Assembly: GCA_029880665.1 (NCBI GenBank)
Contig: JAOUNZ010000004.1
Location: 1-19,399, forward strand
Direction of reading: 5' to 3'
From: Nitrosopumilus sp.
Lineage (GTDB): Archaea; Thermoproteota; Nitrososphaeria; Nitrososphaerales; Nitrosopumilaceae
Length of the DNA: 19,399 nucleotides
The notes under the pieces were generated by a model. That model did not search any database and was not told the DNA's origin. It saw only the letters and a program-made list of their open reading frames with translations. Numbering within the stretch: position 1 is the first letter of the stretch; the number at the start of each line of letters is the position of its first letter. This document shows, in pieces, positions 381-12,033 of this stretch. Both the position numbers and the translations under genes were made by a program.

Positions 381-3251
381 ATGACGATTAATTGGAATGC
401 GATTGAAGACAAATGGAGAAAAAGGTGGAACGAAACCAAAGACTTTGAGACAGATCCAAATGACAAGGAAAAAAAATTCATAACAGTTGCATACCCGTAT
501 CCCAACTCACCGCAACATATTGGGCACGGTAGAACATACACACTGGCTGATGTTCATTCAAGGTTTTACAGAATGCAAGGATACAACGTATTGTTTCCAA
601 TGGGGTTCCATTATACTGGAACGCCAGTGCTTGGGATGGCAAAGAGAATTCAATCTCAAGAAAAAGAGATCTTGGACGGGTTGAGAAACATTTACCATGT
701 TCCAGAAGAGGACATCAAAACATTTGTAGAGCCAATAAAGATTGCAGACTATTTTCATGAGGAGATAAAATCTGGCATGATTGAGATGGGGTATTCCATT
801 GATTGGCGCAGAGAGTTTACAACCATAGTTCCAGGCTATCAAAAGTTTATCGAATGGCAGATCACAACCCTCAAAGAAAACGGCAGAATCATTCAGGGCT
901 CTCATCCAGTTGGATGGTGTCCACGTGATCAAAACCCAGTATCACAGCATGATACGATGGGAGACGTAGAACCAAAGATCGATGACAAGAATTATCTAGT
1001 CAAATTCAAGCTGGATGATTTTATATTTCCAGTCACAACACTGCGGCCTGAAACAATTTTTGGGGTCACTAATCTCTGGGCGAATCCAAATACTGTTTAC
1101 AAAAAGATCAAAGCAGATAATGAAAGGTGGATAGTGTCAGAAGAATGTGCAAAGAAACTAGAGTTCTTTGAAAAAGAGATTTCAATTGAAGGGGACATTG
1201 TAGGCAGTGAGTTAATTGGAAAATACGCCACCGCGCTTCACAATGGCTCAGAAATTCCAGTACTAGAGGCAGACTTTGTAGAGCCTGGCATGGGGACAGG
1301 TTTGGTAATGTCAGTGCCAGCCCATGCGCCAAAAGACTACCAGGCATTGATGGATTTAAAGGCCGCAGGCCACGAACTAGCCTTAAAGATTGAGCCCATT
1401 CCAGTCATAGTCACTGAAGGATATGGCGACATTCCAGCAAGAGATGTATGTGAAAGACTGGGGGTAACTAACCAATCTGATCAAAAACTAGAAGAGGCAA
1501 CAAACGAGCTATACCTCAAAGAGTTTACCGGCGGAAAATTAAATGACAGATGCGGGAAATTCCAAGGAATCAAAGTAGAGTTTGGACGAGACAAGGTAAG
1601 GGAATGGCTGCAGGATAACGGACATCTAGAAAGATTCCCAGTACTTGAGAACGGTCCTGTAAGGTGTCGTTGCGGAACCGAATGTGTCGTAAAGATTCTA
1701 TCAAACCAATGGTTTTTGAATTACGGGGATGAGGAATGGAAAGAAAAGGCAAGAGATTGTCTTGACGGGATGAACATCCTGCCTAACAAAATCAAGACAG
1801 AGTTCAAAGACGTGATTGACTGGCTACACGAGCGAGCATGTGCAAGACAGCAGGGACTTGGAACAAAACTGCCATGGGACAAGGACTGGATTGTAGAGAG
1901 CCTGTCAGACAGCGTAATCTACATGGCATACTATGCCATTTCACGATTTGTAAATGATGGAACAGTATCTCCAGAGAACCTCACCAAAGAGTTCTTTGAC
2001 TATATTTTCCTAGACAGGGGAAACATTGCATCAGCTGCCCAGACTTCAAAGTTGCCAAGAGAGGTCATCGAGATGATGAAAAAAGAGTTCCAGTATTTCT
2101 ATCCAGTAGACTCTCGTCATTCGGGCAGGGATTTGGTTCAGAATCACTTGTCATTTTTTGTGCTAAATCACGTCGCAATATTTGATAGAAAATACTGGCC
2201 AAAAGAGATTGTAGTTAACGGCTCTGTAATGATGGATGGCGCTAAAATGTCAAAGAGCATGGGAAATATCATTCCGCTCCGAACCGCAATCAGGGATCAT
2301 GGTGCAGACCCGATCAGACTGGCAATAATATCATCAGCAGAGCTACTGCAAGACGCTGACTTTAACATGGAATCAGTCTCTGGCATTCAAAACAAGCTAG
2401 AGTCACTTCTTGAGGAATGCTCCAATACAAAAGAAGGGAAAATTGATAATTTAGAGGCTGAGGACAGGTGGATCTTATCTAAAATCCAGAGCATGATATC
2501 TGAGGTGACTGACGCAATCGAGAAGATGAGGCTGCGAGAAGCCTTGCATGATATTTTGTTTTCATTTGAATCTGATCTAAGCTGGTATCGAAAAAGGACA
2601 GAGGCAAAAGGAAGGAAAAACATTTCAGGGATATTGCACAGGATAATCTCCGTACGAGTTGCAATGCTGTCTCCATTTGCCCCACACATATCTGAAGAGA
2701 TGTGGGAAAGACTTGGACATTCCAACCAAGTGTCAAAATCAGCTTGGCCTGAATATTCCAAAGAAAGTGTCGATGCCACATCAATCCAGGCAGAAGAATT
2801 ACTCAAATCAACAATTGACGATATTGCAAACATACTCAGAGTTACAAAGATCACTCCGCAAAAGATTGTAATCTATGTCAATTCCGATCAGTTCAGACTA
2901 ACCGTATATCGCAAGATACTTGGCATAATGGTGAGAGGTCAAAACAACATGGGGGATGTGATGAAAGAGTTGATTGCAGACCCTGAGACTAGAGAAGCCA
3001 AGAAGATGCCAGACTATATACAAAAAGTAATCAAGGATTTACATTCAGAGTCAGAGGTTATCAAAGAGATGAAATTGAAATCAAAGGGGTTTGATGAGAA
3101 AGAATTCTTGTCTTTGGAACTAGGAGACATTGGCAGAAAAGAGTTCGGGGTGGAGATACAGGTGTACTCTGAATCAGACAGCGACATTTATGATCCCAAG
3201 GGCAAGGCAAGGCATGCAAGGCCGTTCAAGCCTGCGATCCTGATTGAGTGA
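381..3251 (+). CDS. leuS: leucyl-tRNA synthetase, archaeal type (956 aa)
   Basis: Long uninterrupted ORF with an ATG start. Class I signatures are present: HIGH-type motif (PQHIGHGRT) and KMSKS (AKMSKSMGN). It has CP1 editing-domain length and an archaeal-style C-terminal extension. Confidence 0.95.
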   Translation: MTINWNAIEDKWRKRWNETKDFETDPNDKEKKFITVAYPYPNSPQHIGHGRTYTLADVHSRFYRMQGYNVLFPMGFHYTGTPVLGMAKRIQSQEKEILDGLRNIYHVPEEDIKTFVEPIKIADYFHEEIKSGMIEMGYSIDWRREFTTIVPGYQKFIEWQITTLKENGRIIQGSHPVGWCPRDQNPVSQHDTMGDVEPKIDDKNYLVKFKLDDFIFPVTTLRPETIFGVTNLWANPNTVYKKIKADNERWIVSEECAKKLEFFEKEISIEGDIVGSELIGKYATALHNGSEIPVLEADFVEPGMGTGLVMSVPAHAPKDYQALMDLKAAGHELALKIEPIPVIVTEGYGDIPARDVCERLGVTNQSDQKLEEATNELYLKEFTGGKLNDRCGKFQGIKVEFGRDKVREWLQDNGHLERFPVLENGPVRCRCGTECVVKILSNQWFLNYGDEEWKEKARDCLDGMNILPNKIKTEFKDVIDWLHERACARQQGLGTKLPWDKDWIVESLSDSVIYMAYYAISRFVNDGTVSPENLTKEFFDYIFLDRGNIASAAQTSKLPREVIEMMKKEFQYFYPVDSRHSGRDLVQNHLSFFVLNHVAIFDRKYWPKEIVVNGSVMMDGAKMSKSMGNIIPLRTAIRDHGADPIRLAIISSAELLQDADFNMESVSGIQNKLESLLEECSNTKEGKIDNLEAEDRWILSKIQSMISEVTDAIEKMRLREALHDILFSFESDLSWYRKRTEAKGRKNISGILHRIISVRVAMLSPFAPHISEEMWERLGHSNQVSKSAWPEYSKESVDATSIQAEELLKSTIDDIANILRVTKITPQKIVIYVNSDQFRLTVYRKILGIMVRGQNNMGDVMKELIADPETREAKKMPDYIQKVIKDLHSESEVIKEMKLKSKGFDEKEFLSLELGDIGRKEFGVEIQVYSESDSDIYDPKGKARHARPFKPAILIE

Positions 3252-3301
3252 TCAGAATACCAAGTGTTAACGAGCTTATCGACAAAGAGTAAAAATAGAA
3301 T

Positions 3302-3315
3302 CCCCCCCCCTTTTT
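3302..3315 (+). terminator. C9 followed by T5 homopolymer tract; candidate oligo-T terminator for leuS
   Basis: tCCCCCCCCCTTTTTa lies about 50-60 nt after the leuS stop. Archaeal RNAP terminates at oligo-T runs. A C9 run is conspicuous in this AT-rich sequence. Confidence 0.35.
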
Positions 3316-3594
3316 ACGAACAAAATTGTGCTATGTTTTGAGATGACAAGCTAAATGTCAAGATAAAAACAAGGGAAAAGATCCCGATCTGATCCAGATT
3401 GGAAAAAAGAAATAGACTATTAATAATTGGACATCTTATGAAAAATTGTCTCATGGCAGGCGTTATACTACGCTCTACAAGATTGCAAATCTTGCGGGAA
3501 CGTACCAGTCTGTCATGAAGACCCCTAGTACATAATGCACTAATGAAATTTGTAAATGTATCTTTAATTTAATATTTTATACTACTCTTTCAAT

Positions 3595-4461
3595 TTATAA
3601 TCCTTCTATTTTATTTTTAATAATGATATGAGATAAGGGTAATGGCATTGACTCATTCATTCTTCCATCATCCATACTCTCAATTCTTCCCAACCAAAAC
3701 CTCTTCCTGTCTGCATTAAGATTAAACTCTCTTGTTTGCGGTTTGATTTTACCAATGTCTCCAATTCTATTTTGAAGAATGGATGATCTTAACCTGCTAT
3801 TCCTATTTACAACAAAACTATAGTATAATCTCCTGTTCTTCTCAAATGTATCTAGATGCTCAATTTCCTTGCCATTTAGTTTGCCTAGACCTCTCTGCTT
3901 CCACTTGCCATTGAACCGATAGAAACCATTCTGTAAAACAAACACGTCACTAGCCTCATTGTCAAAGGAAAAATCACCCAGTTCTGTAGAATTCACACCA
4001 AGTCTCTTTCTGGTGCATATGGAATCCGTGGCAAAGAACACTACATCCTTCTCAATGCCATTTTTACGCACAAAATCGTACAATTGGGCACGGCAAAAGC
4101 CGGTGATAAAGGCAAAGATTACGGGATTGAATAGATTTCCAATCATATGATTTACACTCTGCCCTGTCTTGCCATAGATGGAATTCAGGATTATCTTGAT
4201 TGGCAACTGCAAAGGATTGTTCTGTTGTTTTAGTTCCATTCTTTTCTGGTATAATTTTTGAATGAAATCACGGTATGGATAAATATCAGATTCGGGTATG
4301 AACTGATATCCTTCAAGAATCCTGTAGAAGGTTTTACTTTCACAGGCTTGAAGTTCTGCTAATGTTACATACGTCTCAAACTTTCCTGACGGAAAAATTG
4401 ATGAGTTATTTTCTTTCGGAATTCCAATTTTAAAGGAAGTTACACTTGCACGCGTATCCAT
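3595..4461 (-). pseudogene. family B DNA polymerase, protein-primed type (pPolB), C-terminal palm/thumb fragment only (288 aa)
   Basis: Motif B Kx3NSxYG is present as KIILNSIYGKTG. The motif C region reads VVFFATDSI (canonical YxDTDS). Downstream ELGDFSFDNE....FYRF resembles the LGxWxxE...KxY segment of phi29-type polymerases. No Exo I-III motifs and no motif A (DxxSLYP) are present. The 210 nt upstream (4462-4672) has no frame that continues the ORF. Confidence 0.7.
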
Positions 4462-4620
4462 TCATACCTATTGTGAAAAATTAAAAAATTTAGATAATTA
4501 TGGAGAATTTGTCAATCTCATTCCAGATTCCACCCTAATCCTAGAACGAATTGATGCTGCACTCAAAAATTTACCTGAATCAGGACTGCATAAGAAACAA
4601 TTCTTCTCTTTATCTATTTT

Positions 4621-4646
4621 TTCACAATCTTAGATAGGATTGTGAA
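4621..4646. repeat. perfect 9-bp inverted repeat TTCACAATC-N8-GATTGTGAA; a third ATTGTGAA copy at 4470-4477
   Basis: Read directly from the sequence. The hairpin or operator-like palindrome lies between the stop of the 4673-5206 gene and the PolB-fragment start. The third half-site sits 9 nt upstream of the PolB-fragment ATG. Confidence 0.6.
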
Positions 4647-4672
4647 TAATCTAGTTTTATTTTAACAGAACT

Positions 4673-5206
4673 TTATTTCTTATCTTTTAAAGATAAAAAC
4701 ATGTTCTTTACATTTTCCCAATCATACATCGTACCTATAACCGTTATATCGAGTGGACTCCGTTCTTCTATCCGTTTTATTTTAATAAAATCATATTTGC
4801 GTTCTTTCTTTCCATCTTGATATACTACAAGTAATTTATTTGCCAGAAAATGATAGTCACCAACTTCAAGACGGATTATACTGTCAAACTTAATCTCAAA
4901 ATTAAGATCATTCTTCATATCCTGCTCAAAATCTTCATAGGTGTATTTCCCGATTAAATGAGATATTTCATGTTCTGTGTCAACACCCATTCCCCGTGCA
5001 ATATCTTTGCCTAGGTCTTTCCAAGCACCATCTACTTTTTCCTCCTTTAAATTTTCAGAACTGCTACTTGTTACAATAGCTATGGAATCGGTTGTTAAGA
5101 TTAAGAATCCTTTTCTTCCTGGTGAGAAAAATTTTTTTTCCTTTAACCATACAAATGGTTCAATACGCTTGATTTCTTTTTTCAAAATCCCACAATCTTT
5201 GTACAT
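4673..5206 (-). CDS. hypothetical protein (177 aa); weak resemblance to bacterial PH-like (bPH/YokE-like) domains
   Basis: ATG-initiated ORF with no competing frame. The segments GFLILTTDSIAIVT and IRLEVG...LLVVYQDGKK recall bPH beta-strands, but this is a pattern impression only. Confidence 0.55.
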   Translation of the reverse strand: MYKDCGILKKEIKRIEPFVWLKEKKFFSPGRKGFLILTTDSIAIVTSSSSENLKEEKVDGAWKDLGKDIARGMGVDTEHEISHLIGKYTYEDFEQDMKNDLNFEIKFDSIIRLEVGDYHFLANKLLVVYQDGKKERKYDFIKIKRIEERSPLDITVIGTMYDWENVKNMFLSLKDKK

Positions 5207-5267
5207 TCACTTACAATTAAGATTTTTTTACTAGTTCTTAATTGAATTTTCATAATCCTATATAAGA

Positions 5268-6012
5268 TTAGGTAACAGCACTAAGCAATTCTAAAACAAT
5301 TTTATTCCCAGGATCTAACTGTAATACCTTCTCAAATAATTGCTTTGCATTATCATCAGATCCACGTTCTGCAAACCACTCTCCCTGCTCTATTAATGAC
5401 TGAATGACTTGCTCTCTGAATTGTGCAAGTTTGTTTATCATTTCACTGACTTTGTCCTGATCATCTTGTTACAGGTATATTGACAACAAACTCGACAGAG
5501 CATCAGAGTTGTTTCTGTCAATATCCAAGGTATCATCATAGTAAGATTCTGCCGTACCAGATTTCCTGATTTTAGTTGAGCATTTGCTATGCCATTTATG
5601 GTTACGATTCTCTCAGAGTTTATTTCAAGTGATTTTCCAAAGTATTCCATTGCCAAATCTTTGTTTGATGATTTTTACTCGGTATTTTTCCCCTTCTGAA
5701 TGTCTTGGGCTAATTGAGTAGATCTGCCGTTATCAAAAAATTTCCCACAATCATCCTCGACGTATAAAAATTCTTTACTCCGTCAAACTCTTCTTCAGTT
5801 TCAATTATTTCAGCAATGGTTTCTTTCCCAACTTTTTTTTCAACGTTCTCAACTTTCATAATAGTGAAAACACCCTTATCATCCAGTTTTGAAAGCGGTG
5901 ATTCGGCCATATCCTACTCGCCATCTTGCCCATCAGTATTGACATTGTCACATTCAGGCATTGACATTGAAATTTGATCATTTTGTTTTATCAAATAATC
6001 CAGCGCGTTCAT
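5268..6012 (-). pseudogene. decayed gene with a TPR-like C-terminal half; at least 2 frameshifts and 3 in-frame stops
   Basis: A sensible protein can be followed only by crossing five disruptions: TAG at 5914-5916, a frameshift near 5762-5775, TAA at 5675-5677, a frameshift near 5552-5560 and TAA at 5469-5471. The pieces read KDLAMEYFGKSLEINSERIVTINGIANAQLKSGNL / TAESYYDDTLDIDRNNSDALSSLLSIYL / ...GEWFAERGSDDNAKQLFEKVLQLDPGNKIVLELL, which is TPR-like. Track ORFs 5438..5656 and 5710..5910 are fragments of it. Confidence 0.55.
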
Positions 6013-6091
6013 AATGACGCTGATTTTATCCTATTGATAATTATTTTCTTTGGAATCAGATCATGTTAGAACTTATCAAACCATGCAGATG

Positions 6092-6343
6092 TCATTGCTT
6101 GTCATGAGTGTTTAGTTTTTTGAAAATCTCTTGATACTTGTCAAACTCGTCAAGTTCCTCCAATCTCATTATTTGAATAAGGTTTGCAGTCTCATCTATT
6201 AGCTTGGCAAGTCGTCGCAGCGATTGGTCATATTCTTTATCTTCCTTGTTTTCCCATTCTTCTAGTCTTGTCTTAAAGAATTCAATGCGGCCAAGTTTGT
6301 AGTCAATTTCGCCTGTCAATATTTTAATTGATTCTGGTTTCAT
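6092..6343 (-). CDS. hypothetical small K/E-rich helical protein (83 aa)
   Basis: ATG ORF. Its start overlaps the stop of the upstream ORF in an ATGA 4-nt overlap (6340-6343), which suggests a translationally coupled pair. No recognisable family. Confidence 0.5.
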   Translation of the reverse strand: MKPESIKILTGEIDYKLGRIEFFKTRLEEWENKEDKEYDQSLRRLAKLIDETANLIQIMRLEELDEFDKYQEIFKKLNTHDKQ

Positions 6344-6537
6344 TCCAATCCTTTTTCCAGTTTGATTTTTGCAATAACGTCTCTGACCAGTTCCTCATCT
6401 TTTATGACTAATTCTTGAAGCTTTTTCTTGTATTTCTCATCACCCCATTTGTCTTGACTAAACATCTCTTTGACTAGATTTACAATTTCAGATTTGTTTC
6501 TCTGATGGTCTCGTTTTGCAATTTCAGAGCCTTCCAT
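6340..6537 (-). CDS. hypothetical small helical protein (65 aa)
   Basis: ATG ORF coupled to 6092..6343 by a 4-nt overlap. Charged, coiled-coil-like composition. Confidence 0.45.
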   Translation of the reverse strand: MEGSEIAKRDHQRNKSEIVNLVKEMFSQDKWGDEKYKKKLQELVIKDEELVRDVIAKIKLEKGLE

Positions 6538-6707
6538 AAATTTGTCAGAACGATTTTAAACTTAAGCGTAACTGAAATCCACCGAGTCCTGATCATCTTT
6601 ATTTCCGGTAATCGCGGCAGATTGAGTTTGAACTTTGCAAATTTGAAGCCAGACGCCATTGTACAGTCCTAGGAACTGCATAGAGGGCTTGAGTCTGTTG
6701 GCAGATC

Positions 6708-6914
6708 CTATTTTTTCTTCAGTTTCTCAATGGCCTTGTTAATCTTCTCAACGTTTGAACTCCAGATCTTGACCATCTTCTCTTCGTTTGCAATCTCCTT
6801 TTTCGTTCCCACATCTTTGAGCTGCTTCATCTTGTCCAAGTGTCTCCGAAGGTTGTCCTGTGCTTCTGCCAGCTTCTTTTGTTGATATCCGAGAACTTTA
6901 TCTGCAAAGCCCAT
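6708..6914 (-). CDS. hypothetical small coiled-coil protein (68 aa)
   Basis: ATG ORF with heptad-like K/E-rich sequence. It is divergent from the zinc-ribbon gene at 6996. Confidence 0.45.
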   Translation of the reverse strand: MGFADKVLGYQQKKLAEAQDNLRRHLDKMKQLKDVGTKKEIANEEKMVKIWSSNVEKINKAIEKLKKK

Positions 6915-6995
6915 AATTTTCCTTGTTGTATATTGGTCTTAAGCGTGTTGGGGAACAGTCCAACATTCTTAAGGCCACAATTCCAACAAAAACAG

Positions 6996-7229
6996 ATGAC
7001 GTTATTTTGCAAGCAATGCAGCAGTAGACGATTACCAAAGTATATTGAAGCAGAAAAGACCACATTATGGTTATGCGAAAAGTGCAAGAATTTTACAGAT
7101 ATCAATGATCTTGTTATTCGCAAGCAGACAGACGAGGAAAGAGAGACAGCCAAAAGAAAAGAAAAGGAATTTGAAGAATCCACAAATTTTCCAAAAGCAA
7201 AATTGAACAGAAGAAAGGGCGTAAACTAG
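6996..7229 (+). CDS. zinc-ribbon protein with a charged tail (77 aa); start re-set to an internal ATG of track ORF 6840..7229
   Basis: MTLFCKQCSSRR...LWLCEKCKNF gives CxxC-N17-CxxC. The first 52 codons of the track ORF are Cys/Leu-rich junk that overlaps the opposite-strand gene 6708..6914. Confidence 0.55.
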   Translation: MTLFCKQCSSRRLPKYIEAEKTTLWLCEKCKNFTDINDLVIRKQTDEERETAKRKEKEFEESTNFPKAKLNRRKGVN

Positions 7230-7268
7230 ATCAGCAATGCAAAAACTTACAAAATTTGTGTTCAAATC

Positions 7269-7288
7269 AAGATTACTATTGTAATCTT
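7269..7288. terminator. hairpin AAGATTAC-TATT-GTAATCTT between convergent genes, followed by a T5 run at about 7302
   Basis: An 8-bp perfect stem (10 bp with one bulge) lies 40 nt after the 6996..7229 stop and 57 nt after the stop of the - strand ORF 7345..7479. Confidence 0.3.
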
Positions 7289-7344
7289 TGACTGGAAGTT
7301 ATTTTTCAGACCATACAGTTTCAGAAACCAGAGGAATTAAAGAT

Positions 7345-7479
7345 CTAATATGTTTGTAATCTTCGATATTTTTCTTCTAGCTTTTCATGTACATCTAGTT
7401 TTTTATTTGAATCAGCGATCATTCTGAGCCCTGAAATTGTGTTTTCAAAGATTTTTATTTTTTGTTCTTTTGTTGTCAT
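7345..7479 (-). CDS. possible small helical protein (44 aa, below the track threshold)
   Basis: ATG...TAG ORF read by hand: MTTKEQKIKIFENTISGLRMIADSNKKLDVHEKLEEKYRRLQTY. It lies 39 nt downstream of the 7519..7698 gene on the same strand. The only support is the ORF and its context. Confidence 0.3.
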   Translation of the reverse strand: MTTKEQKIKIFENTISGLRMIADSNKKLDVHEKLEEKYRRLQTY

Positions 7480-7518
7480 GCTATATTAGGCAGTTCATCA
7501 CAGATAAAGATAAACATC

Positions 7519-7698
7519 CTAGACTCCAAATGGATCAGACTTGCATCTTGGGCATTTAGAGCCATCTGTCTTTGTCCCACACTTTGCACAATGAATGTCA
7601 ATTCCCACGATATCATGTGGGTTAGTCTTTGATACCTTTACAATCAGGACTATGGCTAGTAAGACACCTATTGCAAGCCCTATCCATATCAGTACCAT
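7519..7698 (-). CDS. membrane-anchored zinc-ribbon protein (59 aa, missing from the track)
   Basis: Hand translation: MVLIWIGLAIGVLLAIVLIVKVSKTNPHDIVGIDIHCAKCGTKTDGSKCPRCKSDPFGV. It has an N-terminal TM helix followed by CxxC-N8-CxxC. A/T-rich TATA-like sequence lies 20-30 nt upstream. The overlapping + strand track ORF 7595..7807 looks spurious. Confidence 0.55.
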   Translation of the reverse strand: MVLIWIGLAIGVLLAIVLIVKVSKTNPHDIVGIDIHCAKCGTKTDGSKCPRCKSDPFGV

Positions 7699-7879
7699 GG
7701 TGTTCCATTCCCTTTATGCCTTAAAAACCAGTGACGATGGAAATTGTAATCAGAAAAACCAAGATTGGACATGCCCTTTATCTGTCGGGCTGAACAATGG
7801 CAGATGAATGCACAGAATTCAACCGTTTAACGGCATATGTTGTATTAGATGATAAAAGGCATTCATTTCAGATGCGGTT

Positions 7880-8482
7880 TTAGAATTTGTTCTCAAAAAC
7901 CACGTCAGATAGCGGCAATTGCCCGCCTCTGGGGGGCGCATCTTTGGTCTTTTTTCCCACAACCACCATCATAGATATGATGTGATCTGTTGGCAGATTA
8001 ATCATGTTTCCAACCGCGTCATAGTCAAATCCCTTCATTGGGCATGTGTCGTATCCCATGGATTTTGCTGCAATCATTATTGTCTGGGCTGCCATGCCAC
8101 AAGAGCGCATTGCCTCATCTCGTTGTTGCTGGAGTTTTCCACTGTATGAGTTTCTAAGAGACTTGACTAATGCATTGCGTGATTCTTGCGGCATGTTTGC
8201 CCAGTATCTCTCAGGTTTTTTGTCCCAGGAGTTCAAGTCAGCGCATAAAATTATCACAAGTGACGCGTCAGATACTTGCTGTTGTCCGTGAGAGAGCTCA
8301 GATAATTTGTCTTTGATTGCCTGATCAGTTATTGTAACAAATCTCCAGTTTTGGATGTTGTATGATGTTGGAGACAGGACTGCAAGTTCCAAGAGTTTGT
8401 CAATCTCAGATTTTGCCATTTTGTGGTTTTTATCAAAACTTTTCACAGAGCGTCGTTGGTTAATTGCATCAAGTGTGTCCAC
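7880..8482 (-). CDS. nitroreductase family protein (200 aa), GTG start
   Basis: The N-terminal DAINQRRSVKSF plus SPTSYNIQNWRF is the classic nitroreductase (NfnB/NfsB-fold) opening. The length is typical. No upstream in-frame ATG exists. Confidence 0.85.
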   Translation of the reverse strand: MDTLDAINQRRSVKSFDKNHKMAKSEIDKLLELAVLSPTSYNIQNWRFVTITDQAIKDKLSELSHGQQQVSDASLVIILCADLNSWDKKPERYWANMPQESRNALVKSLRNSYSGKLQQQRDEAMRSCGMAAQTIMIAAKSMGYDTCPMKGFDYDAVGNMINLPTDHIISMMVVVGKKTKDAPPRGGQLPLSDVVFENKF

Positions 8483-8589
8483 GATACAACAAAAAAGATA
8501 CCAAATTTAAAAGATGAGTGGAGTTAAGAGTGATTCTAAAAGGAGTGGCCAGAGAGATCACATCTTAAGATCAGTGATGTTCAATCTCT

Positions 8590-8639
8590 GATGACAGATG
8601 TCATCCAAGATCTGAGACGTTGGTAATCAGATGACAGAT
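8590..8639. promoter_or_regulatory. two copies of GATGACAGAT (8590-8599, 8630-8639) in the divergent intergenic region; the first is part of the palindrome GATGACA-GA-TGTCATC
   Basis: Read directly. They sit in the unusually long 257-bp spacer between the divergently transcribed nitroreductase and flavoprotein genes. Confidence 0.35.
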
Positions 8640-8739
8640 TGTCTTGTTAAACATACCGTGCAGTTTTGATATTTAACCGGCATTATTTCCTACTAACAAT
8701 CAATGCCAGAAAAATTTCCAGATAGTATATTTATTAGGC

Positions 8740-9774
8740 ATGATTCAATCGCAAATCATCTTGAAGATTGCAGTAATGGGAATGGGTGTTGCAGGATCTT
8801 ATCTCATGGCACGACTAAAAAATTCTGAACATGAGGTTGTAGGTTATGAAAGAAATGTTGAAGAAAAACATGATTCAATTTGTGCATGGGGAACAATCAA
8901 ACCAGTGCTAAGAGAGTTTTGTAAAAAGACAGGAAGAAACTTTGATGATTTTTTGATTCATGACGGCAAAAACATGCATGTCAAGATGAACGATAATGTG
9001 AAATTTGATATCGGATTGAAGGGGTTATGCACATATGACAAACTTGGGCTGATCAAGGACTTCATAAAAGACTCAAAGATAATTTATGGCCAGACTCCAA
9101 AGCTTGAGGAATTGGAAAAAGAGTATGACATGATAGTTGACTGCACTGGGTTTAACAGAGTATATCTTCCAAAACTAAAGGAGGATTTTTTCCTGCCAAC
9201 ATACGAATACAAGGTAGAGTATGAAAATGGCTTGCCATATGACGACTTTTACATCGAGCCATTTCCTGGAATGTCAGGATACTTTTGGTATTTTCCACTA
9301 GGTGAAAAATGGGCACACATTGGCGCAGGAGATTACAATAAACAGCACATCAAAGCAACAGACGAGTTTTTGAAAAAACATGGAGGCAAAGTGATTGCAA
9401 CAAAAGGACGTCCAATTAGACTTGCAACTCCAGATAGATGCAAGCCATACTATTCAGGCAAAGTGGTGGGTGTTGGCGAATCAATTGGAACAGTTTATGC
9501 GTTGCTGGGGGAAGGAATCATTCCATCAATGCAGTGTGTTGAGATATTTTTAGAAAACATGAACGACTTTAAGGCATATGAGAAAGCAGTAGAGAAACAC
9601 TACAAAGTATATGCAAAAGTGTTTAATTTTGTCAGGGCAAAAATTCACAAAGACTTTAGTTTCTTCAAGGCATTGCCAGATTTTATCTCAATATTTAGAT
9701 ATATGAAAAAGAATGAAGACAGGTTTGGAATGGACATTAAAATTGCTGATCTGATGAAAGTAGCTAAAGCCTAG
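8740..9774 (+). CDS. FAD-dependent oxidoreductase, geranylgeranyl-reductase-like family (344 aa)
   Basis: N-terminal Rossmann GxGxxG (IAVMGMGVAGSY). GYFWYFPLGEKWAHIGAG matches the GYxWxFPxG...vGxG block, and GVGESIGTVYALLGEGIIPSM matches the GDAAGxxxPxxGEGI block of GGR/FixC-type flavoproteins. Its stop shares the palindrome CTAG (9771-9774) with the convergent gene. Confidence 0.6.
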   Translation: MIQSQIILKIAVMGMGVAGSYLMARLKNSEHEVVGYERNVEEKHDSICAWGTIKPVLREFCKKTGRNFDDFLIHDGKNMHVKMNDNVKFDIGLKGLCTYDKLGLIKDFIKDSKIIYGQTPKLEELEKEYDMIVDCTGFNRVYLPKLKEDFFLPTYEYKVEYENGLPYDDFYIEPFPGMSGYFWYFPLGEKWAHIGAGDYNKQHIKATDEFLKKHGGKVIATKGRPIRLATPDRCKPYYSGKVVGVGESIGTVYALLGEGIIPSMQCVEIFLENMNDFKAYEKAVEKHYKVYAKVFNFVRAKIHKDFSFFKALPDFISIFRYMKKNEDRFGMDIKIADLMKVAKA

Positions 9775-10475
9775 ATGAAACTCACAGAGCTGAATCCTTC
9801 TCTGGTTGTTCTATTTGAGGCCATATTGTAATCATAGATTGTTTTTGAATATGCCTTGAATTCGTCCTTCATAGGATCTAGGTTTTCTGCCAAGTAAAAC
9901 CCAGGGCAATCACCTGTAAACTGATAAGTTGCATGGACACGAGCCTTTCCCTTTTCATTTTCAAGCCAGCTGGAAAAAGGATACAGATAGCAGACCCCAG
10001 GCCTGTCTGGATGCATACTGCAGCCTCCTTTTTCATCTAAGAATCTGCAAGAGATGTGCGTCCCATCATCTTCTTCAGTTTCATCGTTTTTTCTTTTTAG
10101 ATTAATTGTAGTCATTGTAGTCATCTGCCCAGAGGGCCCAGGTTCCTGATATGTAACAGTAAGGGTTTCATTTTTTACAAAATCAGACGGCTTTCTGTAT
10201 TTTAGACCATTTCCAATTGTAATCAGATCATCAGATGTCAATGGTAGCCTTCCTTGTCTATCGCAGCAGTTATGGCAATCAGGCCAGTAGCATTTCCACA
10301 AAATGTATTTTTTTTCAGAATTCAGATAGGGCACATGAAACACCACGTCTTTTACTTTGATTGGATAGTCAGAGACATCTGTAATTCTACCCAACATGAA
10401 TTCCCGCAGAATTGGATCTACAGTCCAGTCTTTTTCTAACAAGTTTAGAGATTCTTCAATTTCTTTTTGTGACAA
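9771..10475 (-). CDS. YkgJ/UPF0153-type Cys-cluster (putative Zn/Fe-binding) protein (up to 234 aa; start uncertain)
   Basis: CYWPDCHNCC followed by CRFLDEKGGCSMHPDRPGVCYLYPF matches the CxxCxxCC ... C.fl...g.C.iy..RP..Cr.yP architecture. The track start is a TTG immediately after a stop. The first ATG is 26 codons further in (10397). Confidence 0.75.
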   Translation of the reverse strand: MSQKEIEESLNLLEKDWTVDPILREFMLGRITDVSDYPIKVKDVVFHVPYLNSEKKYILWKCYWPDCHNCCDRQGRLPLTSDDLITIGNGLKYRKPSDFVKNETLTVTYQEPGPSGQMTTMTTINLKRKNDETEEDDGTHISCRFLDEKGGCSMHPDRPGVCYLYPFSSWLENEKGKARVHATYQFTGDCPGFYLAENLDPMKDEFKAYSKTIYDYNMASNRTTREGFSSVSFI

Positions 10476-10501
10476 CTATTAAGTTATAACATCATTTGCA
10501 G

Positions 10502-10830
10502 ATGTTATTAATGTTGAGTGAAAAAGGAAAGTATGCCTCAGCGACAGAGAACAGGAGATTTGTGTGGAGGGAAATAATTTGGCCCTTGATTTTAGAAATC
10601 AATGATGTTGCATTCTCGTTAAAACAGTTTCAAAAAAAAGAGAGCAAATATGTAAAGAAAAGAACGTAACAATTACAATCCCATCAAGAGGACTTGCATC
10701 ATTGATTCAAAAAGGAATTTTGCTAAAAGAAAAAGACATCTATTCAATTCACTTTAGATTGATTCCATACATGAGATTAAAAGCAGACTGTGACTATGGA
10801 ACTGCAATTCATGAGGTCAGAATAAAGTAA
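10502..10830 (+). pseudogene. small wHTH-like regulator split by a -1 frame change at an A8 run (10632-10639)
   Basis: The frame from ATG 10502/10511 reads ..ENRRFVWREIIWPLILEINDVAFSLKQFQKK and stops at 10667-10669. The -1 frame is open from 10606 with no start codon and reads REQICKEKNVTITIPSRGLASLIQKGILLKEKDIYSIHFRLIPYMRLKADCDYGTAIHEVRIK, ending at 10828-10830. Joined at the A8 run, the two give a protein of about 108 aa. Both halves are under 60 aa and so are absent from the track. Confidence 0.45.
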
Positions 10831-10843
10831 TCTCAGCAAATGA

Positions 10844-10849
10844 TTATAT
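10844..10849 (+). promoter_or_regulatory. TATA-box candidate (TTATAT) for the tRNA gene
   Basis: Centred about 29 nt upstream of the mature tRNA 5' end (10876), which is the usual archaeal TATA-to-TSS spacing. Confidence 0.4.
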
Positions 10850-10875
10850 GTTAAAACATTGGGGTTTGATCTAGT

Positions 10876-10980
10876 AGCCCGATAGTCTAGCGGTCAAATA
10901 ATATTTTAGATCAAGGATTCTGCCCTCTGGATCTCAAGAGTGGATAGGCGGAGACGGCAGTTCGAATCTGCCTCGGGCTA
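10876..10980 (+). tRNA. tRNA-Gln (anticodon CUG) with two predicted introns (D-loop, about 10898-10914; canonical 37/38, 10931-10945)
   Basis: Acceptor AGCCCGA/TCGGGCT plus discriminator A, which is the archaeal tRNA-Gln style AGCCCG... start. T arm GGCAG-TTCGAAT-CTGCC. Anticodon stem CTGCC/GGCGG encloses 22 nt, read as loop CT-CTG-G..A plus a 15-nt intron. D arm GTCT-AGCGGTCAA[17 nt]-GGAT. Total length is 105 nt against a 73-nt mature form. No CCA is encoded. Confidence 0.7.
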
Positions 10981-10993
10981 CTGGAAAAATTTT

Positions 10994-11593
10994 CTATCTA
11001 GATGCCTGTGCTATACGCTCTAACTCATTTTTCTTTTTTACAGAAGGAGCATTAGGATCATTGGCTGCTGCAAGCATTAGTTGTTCTGCCATGTGCTCTT
11101 CAATTGGTTTTGGGTTTGAGAATGTTGATTCTTTAATAGCATCAGCGATAAATTTCAAAGCCAAGTCAACTCTTCTGAGCGGTGCGACATCAACTGACAC
11201 ATGGTAAACTGTACCACCATATACAATCCTAGTTGTGTCCTCGTTTGGTGCAGAAAATTCAACTGCTCTTACAAGAATTTCAACCGGGTTTTGGCCAGTT
11301 TTAAGGGCAATGATATCAAACGCAGTTTTTACAGTGTTGAGTAGTTTTGTTTTTTTACCAGTCATTCTACCAGTGTTCTTTGCATATTTCTTTCCAAAGT
11401 GCATTGTCTTGTTGATTAATCTCTCAACAATGTTAACATCAGCTTTGTTGAATCTTTTTAGTGCGGAGCGACCATACGTGTAAGGCAAAATTTGTTTTCT
11501 CAAAGAGATTGCGGTCTTTAATCCAGGATCGTTTACTTCTATGTTAGATAGATCCCATTTTCTAAATAACAATAAATTTTTAGTTTCAGCCAT
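10994..11593 (-). CDS. rps7: 30S ribosomal protein S7 (uS7)
   Basis: 199 aa with an ATG start and a typical archaeal uS7 sequence (..YGRSALKRFNKA..ERLINKTMHFGK..VDVAPLRRVDLAL..). Lies immediately downstream of rps12. Confidence 0.95.
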   Translation of the reverse strand: MAETKNLLLFRKWDLSNIEVNDPGLKTAISLRKQILPYTYGRSALKRFNKADVNIVERLINKTMHFGKKYAKNTGRMTGKKTKLLNTVKTAFDIIALKTGQNPVEILVRAVEFSAPNEDTTRIVYGGTVYHVSVDVAPLRRVDLALKFIADAIKESTFSNPKPIEEHMAEQLMLAAANDPNAPSVKKKNELERIAQASR

Positions 11594-11595
11594 AT

Positions 11596-12033
11596 CTATC
11601 TCCTTGGTTTCTCCTTCTTTCCAATTACTAATTCATGAAGGGATGTACCGTTAACTTTGAAAACTTTGAATCTGACACCAGGAATATCTCCCATTGCACC
11701 ACCTTGAGTTGCGCCCATACCTTGAATATGAACCTCATCGTGTTCATCAATAAAGTTCATGGCACCATCTCTTGGCAAGAATGCTGTAACTGTTTTACCG
11801 TTTTTAATTAATTGAACTCTAACACATTTTCTAATAGCGGAGTTTGGCTGTTTTGCTGCAATACCGACTTTTTCTAAGACAATACCTCGGGCTTGTGGAG
11901 CTCCACCTAGTGGATCAGCCTTTTTATCAATTCCAAGTTTTCTTCTTTTGTAAGTTGAGATGGCCCATCGTTGTGTCTTCTTTTTAGAAGTCAAAACTCT
12001 GCCAGCAAATAATCCAAGTGGTGACTTTCTCAT
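11596..12033 (-). CDS. rps12: 30S ribosomal protein S12 (uS12)
   Basis: 145 aa. [27 protein letters not shown] is the uS12 signature region. Confidence 0.96.

Follow-up and report, generated by a model that had tools for sequence, protein, structure and literature searches.

The DNA considered here is a 19,399-nucleotide stretch of a metagenome-assembled Nitrosopumilus sp. genome, which in its whole length we call the window. The C-terminus of alaS (DHHA1 domain) precedes an intact leucyl-tRNA synthetase gene, leuS (positions 381-3251, + strand), in which Pfam recognizes the tRNA-synt_1, Anticodon_1 and LeuRS editing domains. On the other side of a 4.6-kb island lies a nitroreductase gene (7880-8482, - strand; Pfam PF00881, E=1.7e-34), and the gene after that is geranylgeranyl-reductase-like (8740-9774). 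Our subject is the content of this island, whose left host gene is leuS and whose right host gene is the nitroreductase, and in particular the remains of a casposon, i.e., a transposon driven by a Cas1 integrase (the casposase). An earlier interpretation made without database searches (below, the sequence-only reading) had proposed that about 4.4 kb of the island, 3252-7700, is a single decaying self-replicating element, either an eroded casposon or provirus or a fragment of an uncharacterised pPolB (protein-primed DNA polymerase B) element.

We mapped the window's proteins onto 80 species-level genomes whose LeuS is 74-91% identical to that of the window. The gene order alaS-leuS … (nitroreductase)-o344-o234-o199-o145-o154-o107 is kept among these genomes. 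The spacing from leuS to the nitroreductase or o344 gene is 9 bp in L045 (L-numbers denote fetched comparison loci, 167 of which entered the nucleotide comparison, and P-numbers denote protein homologs), 43 bp in Nitrosopelagicus, and up to more than 10 kb elsewhere. The 4.6-kb stretch between leuS and nitroreductase lacks a counterpart in most of these relatives, so the island perceived in the sequence-only reading is real, and the alignment of relatives that it had recommended yields ten clear empty sites, where the two genes are 9-520 bp apart (L045, L030, L051, L063, L062, L069, L033, L035, L065 and L049). When ORFs (open reading frames) are clustered over all leuS-downstream intervals, the small genes form a mosaic pool that is shared in shuffled order. 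With conserved flanks, variable content and mosaic gene sharing across the 80 genomes, the leuS-nitroreductase interval represents a variable spot on the chromosomes of Nitrosopumilus. In L040, L041 and L073 it is free of Cas1 and of pPolB; judged by their sequences, its genes there include a putative uracil-DNA-glycosylase-like first gene, a putative DEAH helicase gene and other ordinary-looking genes.

Two general properties of islands are of little help here. The fall in G+C content that windowed composition was expected to reveal is present, with values of 0.41-0.45 for leuS and 0.31-0.37 for the island, but 8.5-16 kb of the window is just as AT-rich; composition is therefore not diagnostic, and we rejected it as a marker of foreign origin. 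Scans of the window revealed no tRNA gene and no Rfam match (E<=1), which excludes insertion into a tRNA gene.

The first sequence 3' of the leuS stop codon is a leader (3252-3277, + strand) that is a copy of the last bases of ef-2 (…CAGAATACCAAGTGTTAACGAGCTT). This leader can be aligned with …CCAGAnCCACCAGGTGTTAACGAGTTT, the 3' end of ef-2 in seven loci whose ef-2 site is occupied by a casposon. At these seven loci, the leader upstream of the 13-mer described next is the end of the EF-2 gene itself, encoding …RKRKGLAPEPPGVNEFIDKE before the stop codon; in L094, positions 2090-4282 are identified as EF-2 by Pfam. In the window, the leader is followed by a single copy of a target-site duplication (TSD) of 13 bp, ATCGACAAAGAGT (3278-3290, + strand). 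The target of the casposase of Nitrosopumilus koreensis AR1 (NitAR1), ATTGATAAAGAGT, has been defined biochemically, and its essential residues are A1, A11 and T13 (PMC8464041). The window's TSD is identical to the tested NitAR1 TSD at 11 of 13 positions, and A1, A11 and T13 are all retained. The same 13-mer also stands between tandem casposons in L094, L123, L125, L132 and L145. The junctions of such tandem arrays in metagenomic loci have the form …GGGGGGATTCTATTTTT / ATCGACAAAGAGT / AAAAAGGCAG…, with the 13-mer identical or a close variant, which fixes the element's terminus at AAAAATAGAA… and the length of the duplication at 13 bp.

The sequence adjoining the TSD, AAAAATAGAATCCCCCCCCCTTTTTACGAACAAAATTGTGCTATGTTTTGAGATGAC (3291-3346, + strand), is a 56-bp terminal inverted repeat (TIR) from the polymerase-proximal end of a casposon. 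It is approximately 90% identical to both the left end (4286-) and the right end (-11462) of casposon 1 of L094, a complete casposon from a metagenome, and its first 17 nucleotides equal the published TIR of NitAR1-C1 (supplementary file 3 of PMC6563490). The entire junction, GTTAACGAGCTT / ATCGACAAAGAGT / AAAAATAGAATCCCC, has the anatomy seen at ef-2 sites and in tandem arrays. Thus, the insertion begins 3' of the leuS stop codon, on an ef-2-like leader and a TSD, and leuS is undamaged. Self-comparison of 2900-9000 for inverted and direct repeats detected nothing above chance and no second terminus, and a second direct copy of the TSD with at most two mismatches is absent from the window. The sequence-only reading, which saw no TIR, was therefore right that no inverted pair exists here, and the repeat comparison that it suggested yields neither a TIR pair nor a second TSD; however, comparison with casposon loci does identify a single terminus with its TSD at 3278-3346. 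A candidate partner terminus at 6700-6718 was rejected, as it has three mismatches (the chance level), overlaps the end of the gene o68 and lacks the run of C residues. A duplication derived from leuS, ATTGAGTGATCAG, was likewise rejected, with matches at chance level only.

The same junction is occupied in the closest species, Nitrosopumilus sp. HKST02 (L001; JAGQHE010000012.1), whose LeuS is 91% identical. At the nucleotide level, the window and L001 remain homologous from leuS through window position 3310, where the homology ends. The final 60 bp in common read, in the window's version, TGA TCAGAATACCAAGTGTTAACGAGCTT ATCGACAAAGAGT AAAAATAGAATCCCCCCCCC. In L001, the gene next to leuS is HEPN/AbiV-like; it is followed by one for Cas1 (PF01867, E=4.7e-43), by additional ORFs and by a gene for pPolB that is free of stop codons over its first 480 residues, up to the end of the contig.

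The window's own polymerase gene lies at 3595-4461 (- strand) and represents the 3' half of a casposon pPolB gene, approximately residues 306-594 of 594. Its 288-residue ORF, which has 100% identity with NCBI protein OEY17_00530, matches Pfam PF03175 (E=7.7e-10) and PHROG 11768 (E=1.5e-28), the latter at model positions 345-531 of 647, i.e., in the C-terminal part. The fragment of a protein-primed polymerase noticed in the sequence-only reading is thereby confirmed. When the intact 594-residue polymerase of L106 (L106 1452-3236) is used as a tblastn query, its residues 326-593 match at window 4416-3613, and with P0006 as the query the homology extends to window 4452. The fragment includes motif B (KIILNSIYGK) and motif C (FATDS), and it is without the exonuclease domain and motif A (LYDINSAYPYA in relatives). 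No remnant of the polymerase's N-terminal part was detected in any frame, either upstream or elsewhere in the window.

Relatives of this polymerase are those of casposons. We found 258 of them in the protein database, nearly all on Nitrosopumilus-like contigs and many of them short, and a metagenome scan with the polymerase alignment recovered 80 loci. In roughly 25 of the scan loci the polymerase is full-length and lies 3-4 kb downstream of a Cas1 gene. These units consist of Cas1, then small genes (homologs of the 110-, 111- and 105-residue ORFs of L001), then pPolB; homologs of the 111- and 105-residue ORFs immediately precede pPolB in all of these loci, and they precede it in more than 40 loci overall. 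The published architecture of family-1 casposons is a Cas1 of about 340 residues without a helix-turn-helix domain, a pPolB, and three to four conserved small genes upstream of pPolB. The window's fragment is 78-89% identical to polymerases adjoining cas1 in complete family-1 casposons, 82-85% identical to the full-length polymerases of L085, L087 and L088, and 88.6% identical to the truncated one of L097. It reads toward the terminus at 3291-3346, and in complete elements (L094) pPolB is the last large gene before the TIR.

No other part of a casposon was found. Using the ORFs of L001 and of 84 casposon-bearing loci as tblastn queries, we found in the window neither Cas1 nor any of the conserved small casposon genes, and Pfam searches of the island's ORFs also gave no Cas1, as the sequence-only reading had stated; among relatives, Pfam detects Cas1 in L094 with E=8e-40, as it does in L001. 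What fills the gaps around the polymerase fragment is of other origin or without match. The TIR runs into a scrap of a host gene (3334-3431, + strand), comprising the last 26 or so codons of a 97-residue gene, in which a W codon has become a stop codon, and 14 bp downstream of the gene. Over 97 bp this scrap matches L037 20254-20350 with 83.5% identity; these positions form the 3' end of an ORF (20043-20336) that sits upstream of a thyX-like gene in L037. At the junction of TIR and scrap is an octamer, TTGAGATG, that is common to both parents (window 3334-3346, L037 20254-20266), which suggests microhomology-mediated joining at these 8 bp. A non-coding spacer (3432-3594) then leads to the polymerase's stop codon; it has no match in the 167 loci or in Rfam (E<=1) and contains no tRNA. 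Beyond the polymerase break point, which we place at about 4452-4461, is a non-coding region (4462-4672) without homology to the fetched loci and without polymerase homology in any frame. Here ATTGTGAAAAA occurs three times, at 4470-4480 (+), 4618-4628 (-) and 4639-4648 (+), the copies being inverted relative to one another (repeats I4 and I18), and a related sequence, AAATTGTG, occurs within the TIR at 3323-3330. Long non-coding gaps had been remarked on at 3252-3594, 4462-4672 and 6538-6707, and all three are present.

To judge from these sequences, 3278-4461 is the polymerase-side end of a family-1 casposon together with its leader-side target duplication. Because the polymerase belongs to this family, the terminus and TSD are canonical and L001 carries Cas1 and pPolB at the same junction, the earlier suggestion of a deeply eroded casposon is correct for these 1.2 kb; it does not extend to the other 3.3 kb, which are discussed below. 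We assign a probability of about 85% to the reading in which the interval is a variable spot, its leuS-proximal 1.2 kb (3278-4461) are a family-1 casposon remnant, and a casposon origin of the rest is unsupported. A plausible history is that a complete casposon was inserted 3' of leuS by its Cas1 integrase. In this process, the 3' ends of the element would have attacked both sides of the 13-bp target, and gap repair would have duplicated the target. Deletions and illegitimate recombination would subsequently have removed cas1, the conserved small genes, the 5' half of the polymerase gene and the distal terminus; one of the junctions left by such removal shows the 8-bp microhomology. The remnant can neither copy itself nor move, because it is without an integrase, without a working polymerase (having no exonuclease domain and no motif A) and without a second end.

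It is important to consider the points that weigh against this reading. There is only one terminus and one copy of the TSD, so the extent of the original insertion is not measurable. The approximately 250 bp from the TIR to the polymerase's stop codon are not casposon-like, so the link between TIR and polymerase rests on their position and orientation. The gene o177 and the region 4462-5240 lack informative relatives and could be former casposon cargo. Finally, an intact 288-codon ORF in which no conserved position is changed fits a recent truncation, but selection on the fragment would be in keeping with it too.

The remainder of the island consists of pieces and small genes. The first is o177 (4673-5206, - strand), which is intact and whose structure model has a PH-like fold. 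It belongs to a very rare family, which comprises five clusters among 1.8 billion representatives, and the protein is 99% identical to OEW49_01960. Its AlphaFold model has a mean confidence score (pLDDT) of 79.8, and the fold matches are weak (E>=8e-3) and mostly to PH-type domains. One homolog, P0123, sits between an HTTM/VKGC gene and an AsnC-type gene, and we found no link to mobile elements among the homologs, neighbours or fold matches. The next two features had been seen as one gene riddled with stop codons. This DNA (approximately 5241-5912) is indeed decayed, but it consists of two separate pseudogene pieces. One (5241-5659, - strand) is the terminal 135 or so codons of a large gene for a tetratricopeptide-repeat (TPR) protein, with one frameshift and one in-frame stop; along 420 bp it shares 89% identity with L106 4827-5244, where the gene for a 904-residue TPR protein ends. 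The other (5646-5912, - strand) is a pseudogene of a 100-residue host protein, with two frameshifts and with its 3' end cut at the junction with the TPR piece. It is 81% identical to L072 16519-16793, an intact 100-residue ORF adjoining nitroreductase, and its first frame is the ORF o66.

Farther right are intact small genes. The overlapping genes o83 and o65 (6092-6537, - strand) encode small helical proteins, and the pair recurs in L026 at 75% and 69% identity. After a non-coding gap of 170 bp (6538-6707), whose G+C content of about 0.41 is above that of its surroundings and which has no homolog in the fetched loci and no Rfam match, comes o68 (6708-6914, - strand), a small charged helical protein that clusters with ORFs in the same interval of L026, L027 and L079. 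The two zinc ribbons that had been noticed are both present. The first (6996-7229, + strand) is a 77-residue protein, of which a 129-residue ORF starting at 6840 is an over-extension; its homologs are exactly 77 residues long in L034, L040, L041, L046, L048, L073, L084, L102 and L109. In three loci (L084 1642-2181, L102 15276-15757 and L109 3603-4127) this gene is paired with one of about 85 residues, which is distantly related (24% identity) to the 97-residue gene behind the scrap at 3334-3431. The remaining genes are o44 (7345-7479, - strand), a small helical protein 52% identical to an ORF of L027, and o59zn (7519-7698, - strand), a membrane-anchored zinc-ribbon protein 54% identical to L115 3224-3400. 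The L115 homolog likewise sits between nitroreductase and a polymerase remnant.

Homologs are present at other loci of Nitrosopumilus for o66, o83, o65, o68, the 77-residue zinc ribbon, o44 and o59zn, which are therefore not the orphans they had been taken for. Relatives of o65 occur in 12 leuS-downstream intervals (omega, the ratio dN/dS of nonsynonymous to synonymous divergence, 0.10-0.26), those of o66 in L072 and L031 (omega 0.07 versus L072), and those of the 77-residue zinc ribbon in six to nine loci; for this last gene dN is 0.36-0.41, most pairs have a saturated dS, and omega could be measured once, at 0.20. The values show purifying selection on the genes for which dS is measurable, namely o65, o66 and o44 (omega 0.07-0.32, for comparison 0.03-0.08 in leuS). 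The sequence-only reading had named purifying selection in relatives as something that would speak against it; such selection is found for these three, although most relatives do not have an intact interval and empty sites exist. The six small intact genes (o83, o65, o68, the zinc ribbon, o44 and o59zn) belong to the interval's flexible gene pool.

The strongest competitor of our reading is the one in which all of 3252-7700 is a single eroded casposon or other pPolB element, with the small ORFs as its surviving cargo. Family-1 casposons do carry element-specific cargo, all genes but one in the island are on the strand of the polymerase fragment, and the G+C content is low throughout. In addition, o59zn is found near a polymerase remnant in L115 as well, and in L102 and L109 the zinc-ribbon gene is within a few kilobases of casposons. 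Yet when the 1,963 ORFs from the 84 casposon-bearing loci were compared with 4462-7700, none matched except host-flank genes, and a second TIR or TSD was not found in the window. Most relatives of the small genes are in loci without Cas1 or pPolB. More specifically, o65, o83, o66, o68 and the zinc ribbon occur in Cas1- and pPolB-free intervals after leuS (L026, L031, L040, L041, L072 and L073). Since these genes recur in casposon-free intervals at low omega (0.07-0.32 in the cases with measurable dS), flexible host gene content is the best description of the island's right-hand part. The TPR piece, moreover, derives from a 904-residue gene of host type. We therefore find it improbable that a single decaying self-replicating element accounts for the whole 4.4 kb: no other trace of a casposon gene is present, and the additional 3.3 kb, for which a casposon origin is unsupported, are gene debris, including host fragments, and small conserved host genes.

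A different question is whether the polymerase fragment, though of casposon origin, has been kept for a host function as an exapted palm-thumb protein. The ORF is intact and has its own ATG. Among 83 relatives, 79 alignment columns are conserved at 95% or more, and none of these is altered in the fragment. Other remnants have decayed: L095, L096, L103/L104, L122 and L140 contain stop codons, and L122 and L140 have alterations in 11/79 and 9/71 conserved columns. The conservation of the window's copy is, however, explained by its 82-89% identity to active-looking full-length copies, and since the retained part is undamaged, the truncation is probably fairly recent. The fragment's omega of 0.05-0.08 versus relatives (at dS >=0.9) mostly reflects evolution inside active casposons, and no observation calls for selection on the fragment itself.

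The pattern of truncation among remnants bears on the same question. Every truncated copy that we examined retains the polymerase-proximal terminus and the adjoining 13-mer, and many other genomes contain ORFs of 200-300 residues over the same part of the polymerase. These short ORFs and a clustering of truncation points count in favour of exaptation. Among 14 independent break points (L082-L149 and the window's own at 4452-4461, in the numbering of the 594-residue polymerase), 12 are at residues 274-376, at or beyond motif A, and the others are at 133 and 161. Under a uniform expectation over the detectable residues 1-410, about 25% would be in 274-376, giving a binomial probability of about 3e-6, with the caveat that the interval was chosen after the data had been seen. 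However, exact break points and neighbours vary by locus, and the fragment has neither motif A nor the exonuclease domain, so we regard a retained host function as less probable still than a single large element. An element inserted in common at the break points was rejected, as the sequences upstream of the break points in 16 remnants are unrelated to one another. We also rejected an ancient truncation shared by the window and L115, both of which are at leuS with breaks at residues 325/326, because homology in L115 continues upstream in other frames and because the two fragments are only 65% identical to each other versus 85% and 75% to full-length copies. The window thus illustrates casposon decay, in which the interior disappears and what persists is the leader-side end with the polymerase's 3' half.

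Protein-primed PolBs are typical of spindle-shaped-type viruses and linear plasmids, and PHROG polymerase families do match the fragment, but it is very unlikely that it is left from such a virus (e.g., a spindle-shaped Nitrosopumilus virus) or linear plasmid, and the provirus proposed in the sequence-only reading is disfavoured, given that the best viral polymerases, which are distant relatives (His2, Acidianus bottle-shaped viruses, actinophages), are 22-33% identical versus 60-89% for cas1-linked copies, that an IMG/VR scan with the polymerase alignment returned no relatives, that no capsid, packaging or other PHROG match exists in the island, and that the adjoining terminus and TSD are of family-1 casposon type.

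With the reading of a family-1 casposon remnant at leuS in place, the leader deserves attention, as family-1 casposons are known to target mainly the 3' end of ef-2. In the window, L001 and L115, what separates the leuS stop codon from the 13-mer is homologous to the final 20-40 bp of ef-2; in L061 it is more diverged. In 77 of the 80 genomes the leuS flank has no ef-2-like sequence, and those flanks also have no element. Compared with shuffled controls, the alignment scores correspond to z=22 for L001 and z=6 for L061, with all other leuS flanks within noise; the empty flank of L002 was considered as a target-like sequence and rejected, as its similarity is not significant. The carriers (window/L001, L115 and L061) are not monophyletic by LeuS: the C-terminus of L115 LeuS is closest to L065, L069 and L049, all of which have empty sites, and the window's nearest relatives after L001 (L002 and L013) have empty sites as well. 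The three leuS occupants also differ in TIR interior and orientation.

Similar copies are found elsewhere. Leaders resembling the end of ef-2 precede casposon ends after a cl37-type gene (L100/L103/L104) and by ABC-transporter genes (L097 and L089), and they occur in L155, with a tandem array, and in L157. The length of ef-2 homology among the copies ranges from about 16 to about 40 bp. The copies are located at window 3252-3290, L001 12872-12915, L115 9121-9168, L061 6204-6239, L100 2942-2975, L103 2003-2036, L097 11754-11787, L089 6588-6621, L155 244-277 and L157 2754-2787. As a tentative explanation, which we consider possible though not probable, a casposon may occasionally be mobilised along with its upstream flank, planting a new target that later casposons re-use. 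This idea fits the relaxed end-sequence requirement of the family-1 casposase (PMC8464041). If it is true, flank mobilisation would let a strictly site-specific transposon colonise new loci. More generally, the mimics of the ef-2 end raise the question of how a site-specific, Cas1-driven transposon gains new targets, which bears on how the leader-repeat units of CRISPR may have arisen from casposon target sites. In the literature searched, we did not find casposons and leucyl-tRNA synthetase together. What is new here is the leuS casposon site and the use of a short copy of the ef-2 end as a target; a dead family-1 casposon is in itself ordinary.

Several of the loci collected for comparison are of separate interest. 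Other 13-bp family-1 targets, which have their own leaders, are ACTGAYAATCTCT, GATGATGTTTGGT and ATCGAGCCACAAT (L102 4394-4406, L111 150-162; L129 1604-1616, L148 3175-3187; L131 105-117, L136 1617-1629), and ACTGAYAATCTCT is the commonest among truncated copies. L096 contains a 2.65-kb internally deleted casposon (9026-11673), in which residues 1-127 of Cas1 have been fused to residues 287-594 of pPolB. The element, which may be non-autonomous, retains both TIRs and is flanked by a direct repeat matching at 12 of 13 positions (ATTGAAACTCTAT / ATTGAAATTCTAT). A further island extends from aspS to leuB in L084 (4467-11240; OZ252092.1, ~885-891 kb), with three polymerase fragments in both orientations, a scrap of the N-terminal part of Cas1 and a single casposon terminus; two of its genes encode the gp19 (tail tube) domain of phage T4.

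Other observations concern alaS-leuS itself. On one chromosome of a metagenome-assembled genome (OZ245040.1), an alaS-leuS locus is present twice, as L037 and L043, about 100 kb apart. Both are 81% identical to the window, and what lies downstream differs between them, which reflects either a duplication or a mis-assembly of two strains. Alphaproteobacterial titles are attached to two further records with a Nitrosopumilus-type alaS-leuS that is 81% identical, L029 (JAJFID010000192.1, titled Rhodospirillales bacterium) and L059 (NZ_LFTY01000001.1, titled Candidatus Rhodobacter oscarellae), and these loci are probably binning or assembly contamination.

The window can be compared with four kinds of known element. 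The described family-1 casposons of Nitrosopumilus are NitAR1-C1, NitSJ-C1, NitAR2-C1 and NitNF5-C1/C2 (Krupovic et al. 2014, 2019). Like them, the window has a polymerase of the casposon-associated pPolB family and an insertion just 3' of an undamaged protein-coding gene; its terminus, AAAAATAGAATCCCCCC, is identical to the start of the NitAR1-C1 TIR, and its TSD shares 11 of 13 positions with the tested NitAR1 target, as noted above. Unlike them, it keeps one end and half a polymerase, with no Cas1, small genes, second TIR or second TSD, and its site is the 3' flank of leuS, where a short copy of the ef-2 end takes the role of ef-2. NitEve-C1 of Nitrososphaera evergladensis, an 'intergenic' family-1 casposon, resembles the window in being away from ef-2 with a published TSD, GCGACAAAGAG, that is similar to the ef-2-type target. 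It differs in being complete, with Cas1 and both TIRs, and in belonging to a different genus.

Integration sites are re-used in tandem, and integrated elements decay, in the casposon arrays of Methanosarcina and N. adriaticus NF5. Arrays in which single 13-bp TSDs stand between the casposons occur in L094, L150, L155, L111, L130 and L139, and remnants that retain the leader-side end are common; the window has a single remnant rather than an array. In L094 (4286-20834), one ef-2 is followed by three or more family-1 casposons with single 13-bp TSDs between them; the first two are tail-to-tail, with their polymerase ends facing, and the polymerases are 44-47% identical. The closest comparison is with L001, in which the leader and TSD also follow the leuS stop codon and are 88% identical over window 3201-3310. 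In L001, however, it is the cas1 end that faces leuS, i.e., the orientation is opposite, and the interior of the TIR differs (TGCCCCTCCCCTAGGCGTG…). The L001 element is thus a different casposon lineage on the same site, and together with the many empty sites it gives clean before-and-after junctions at leuS.

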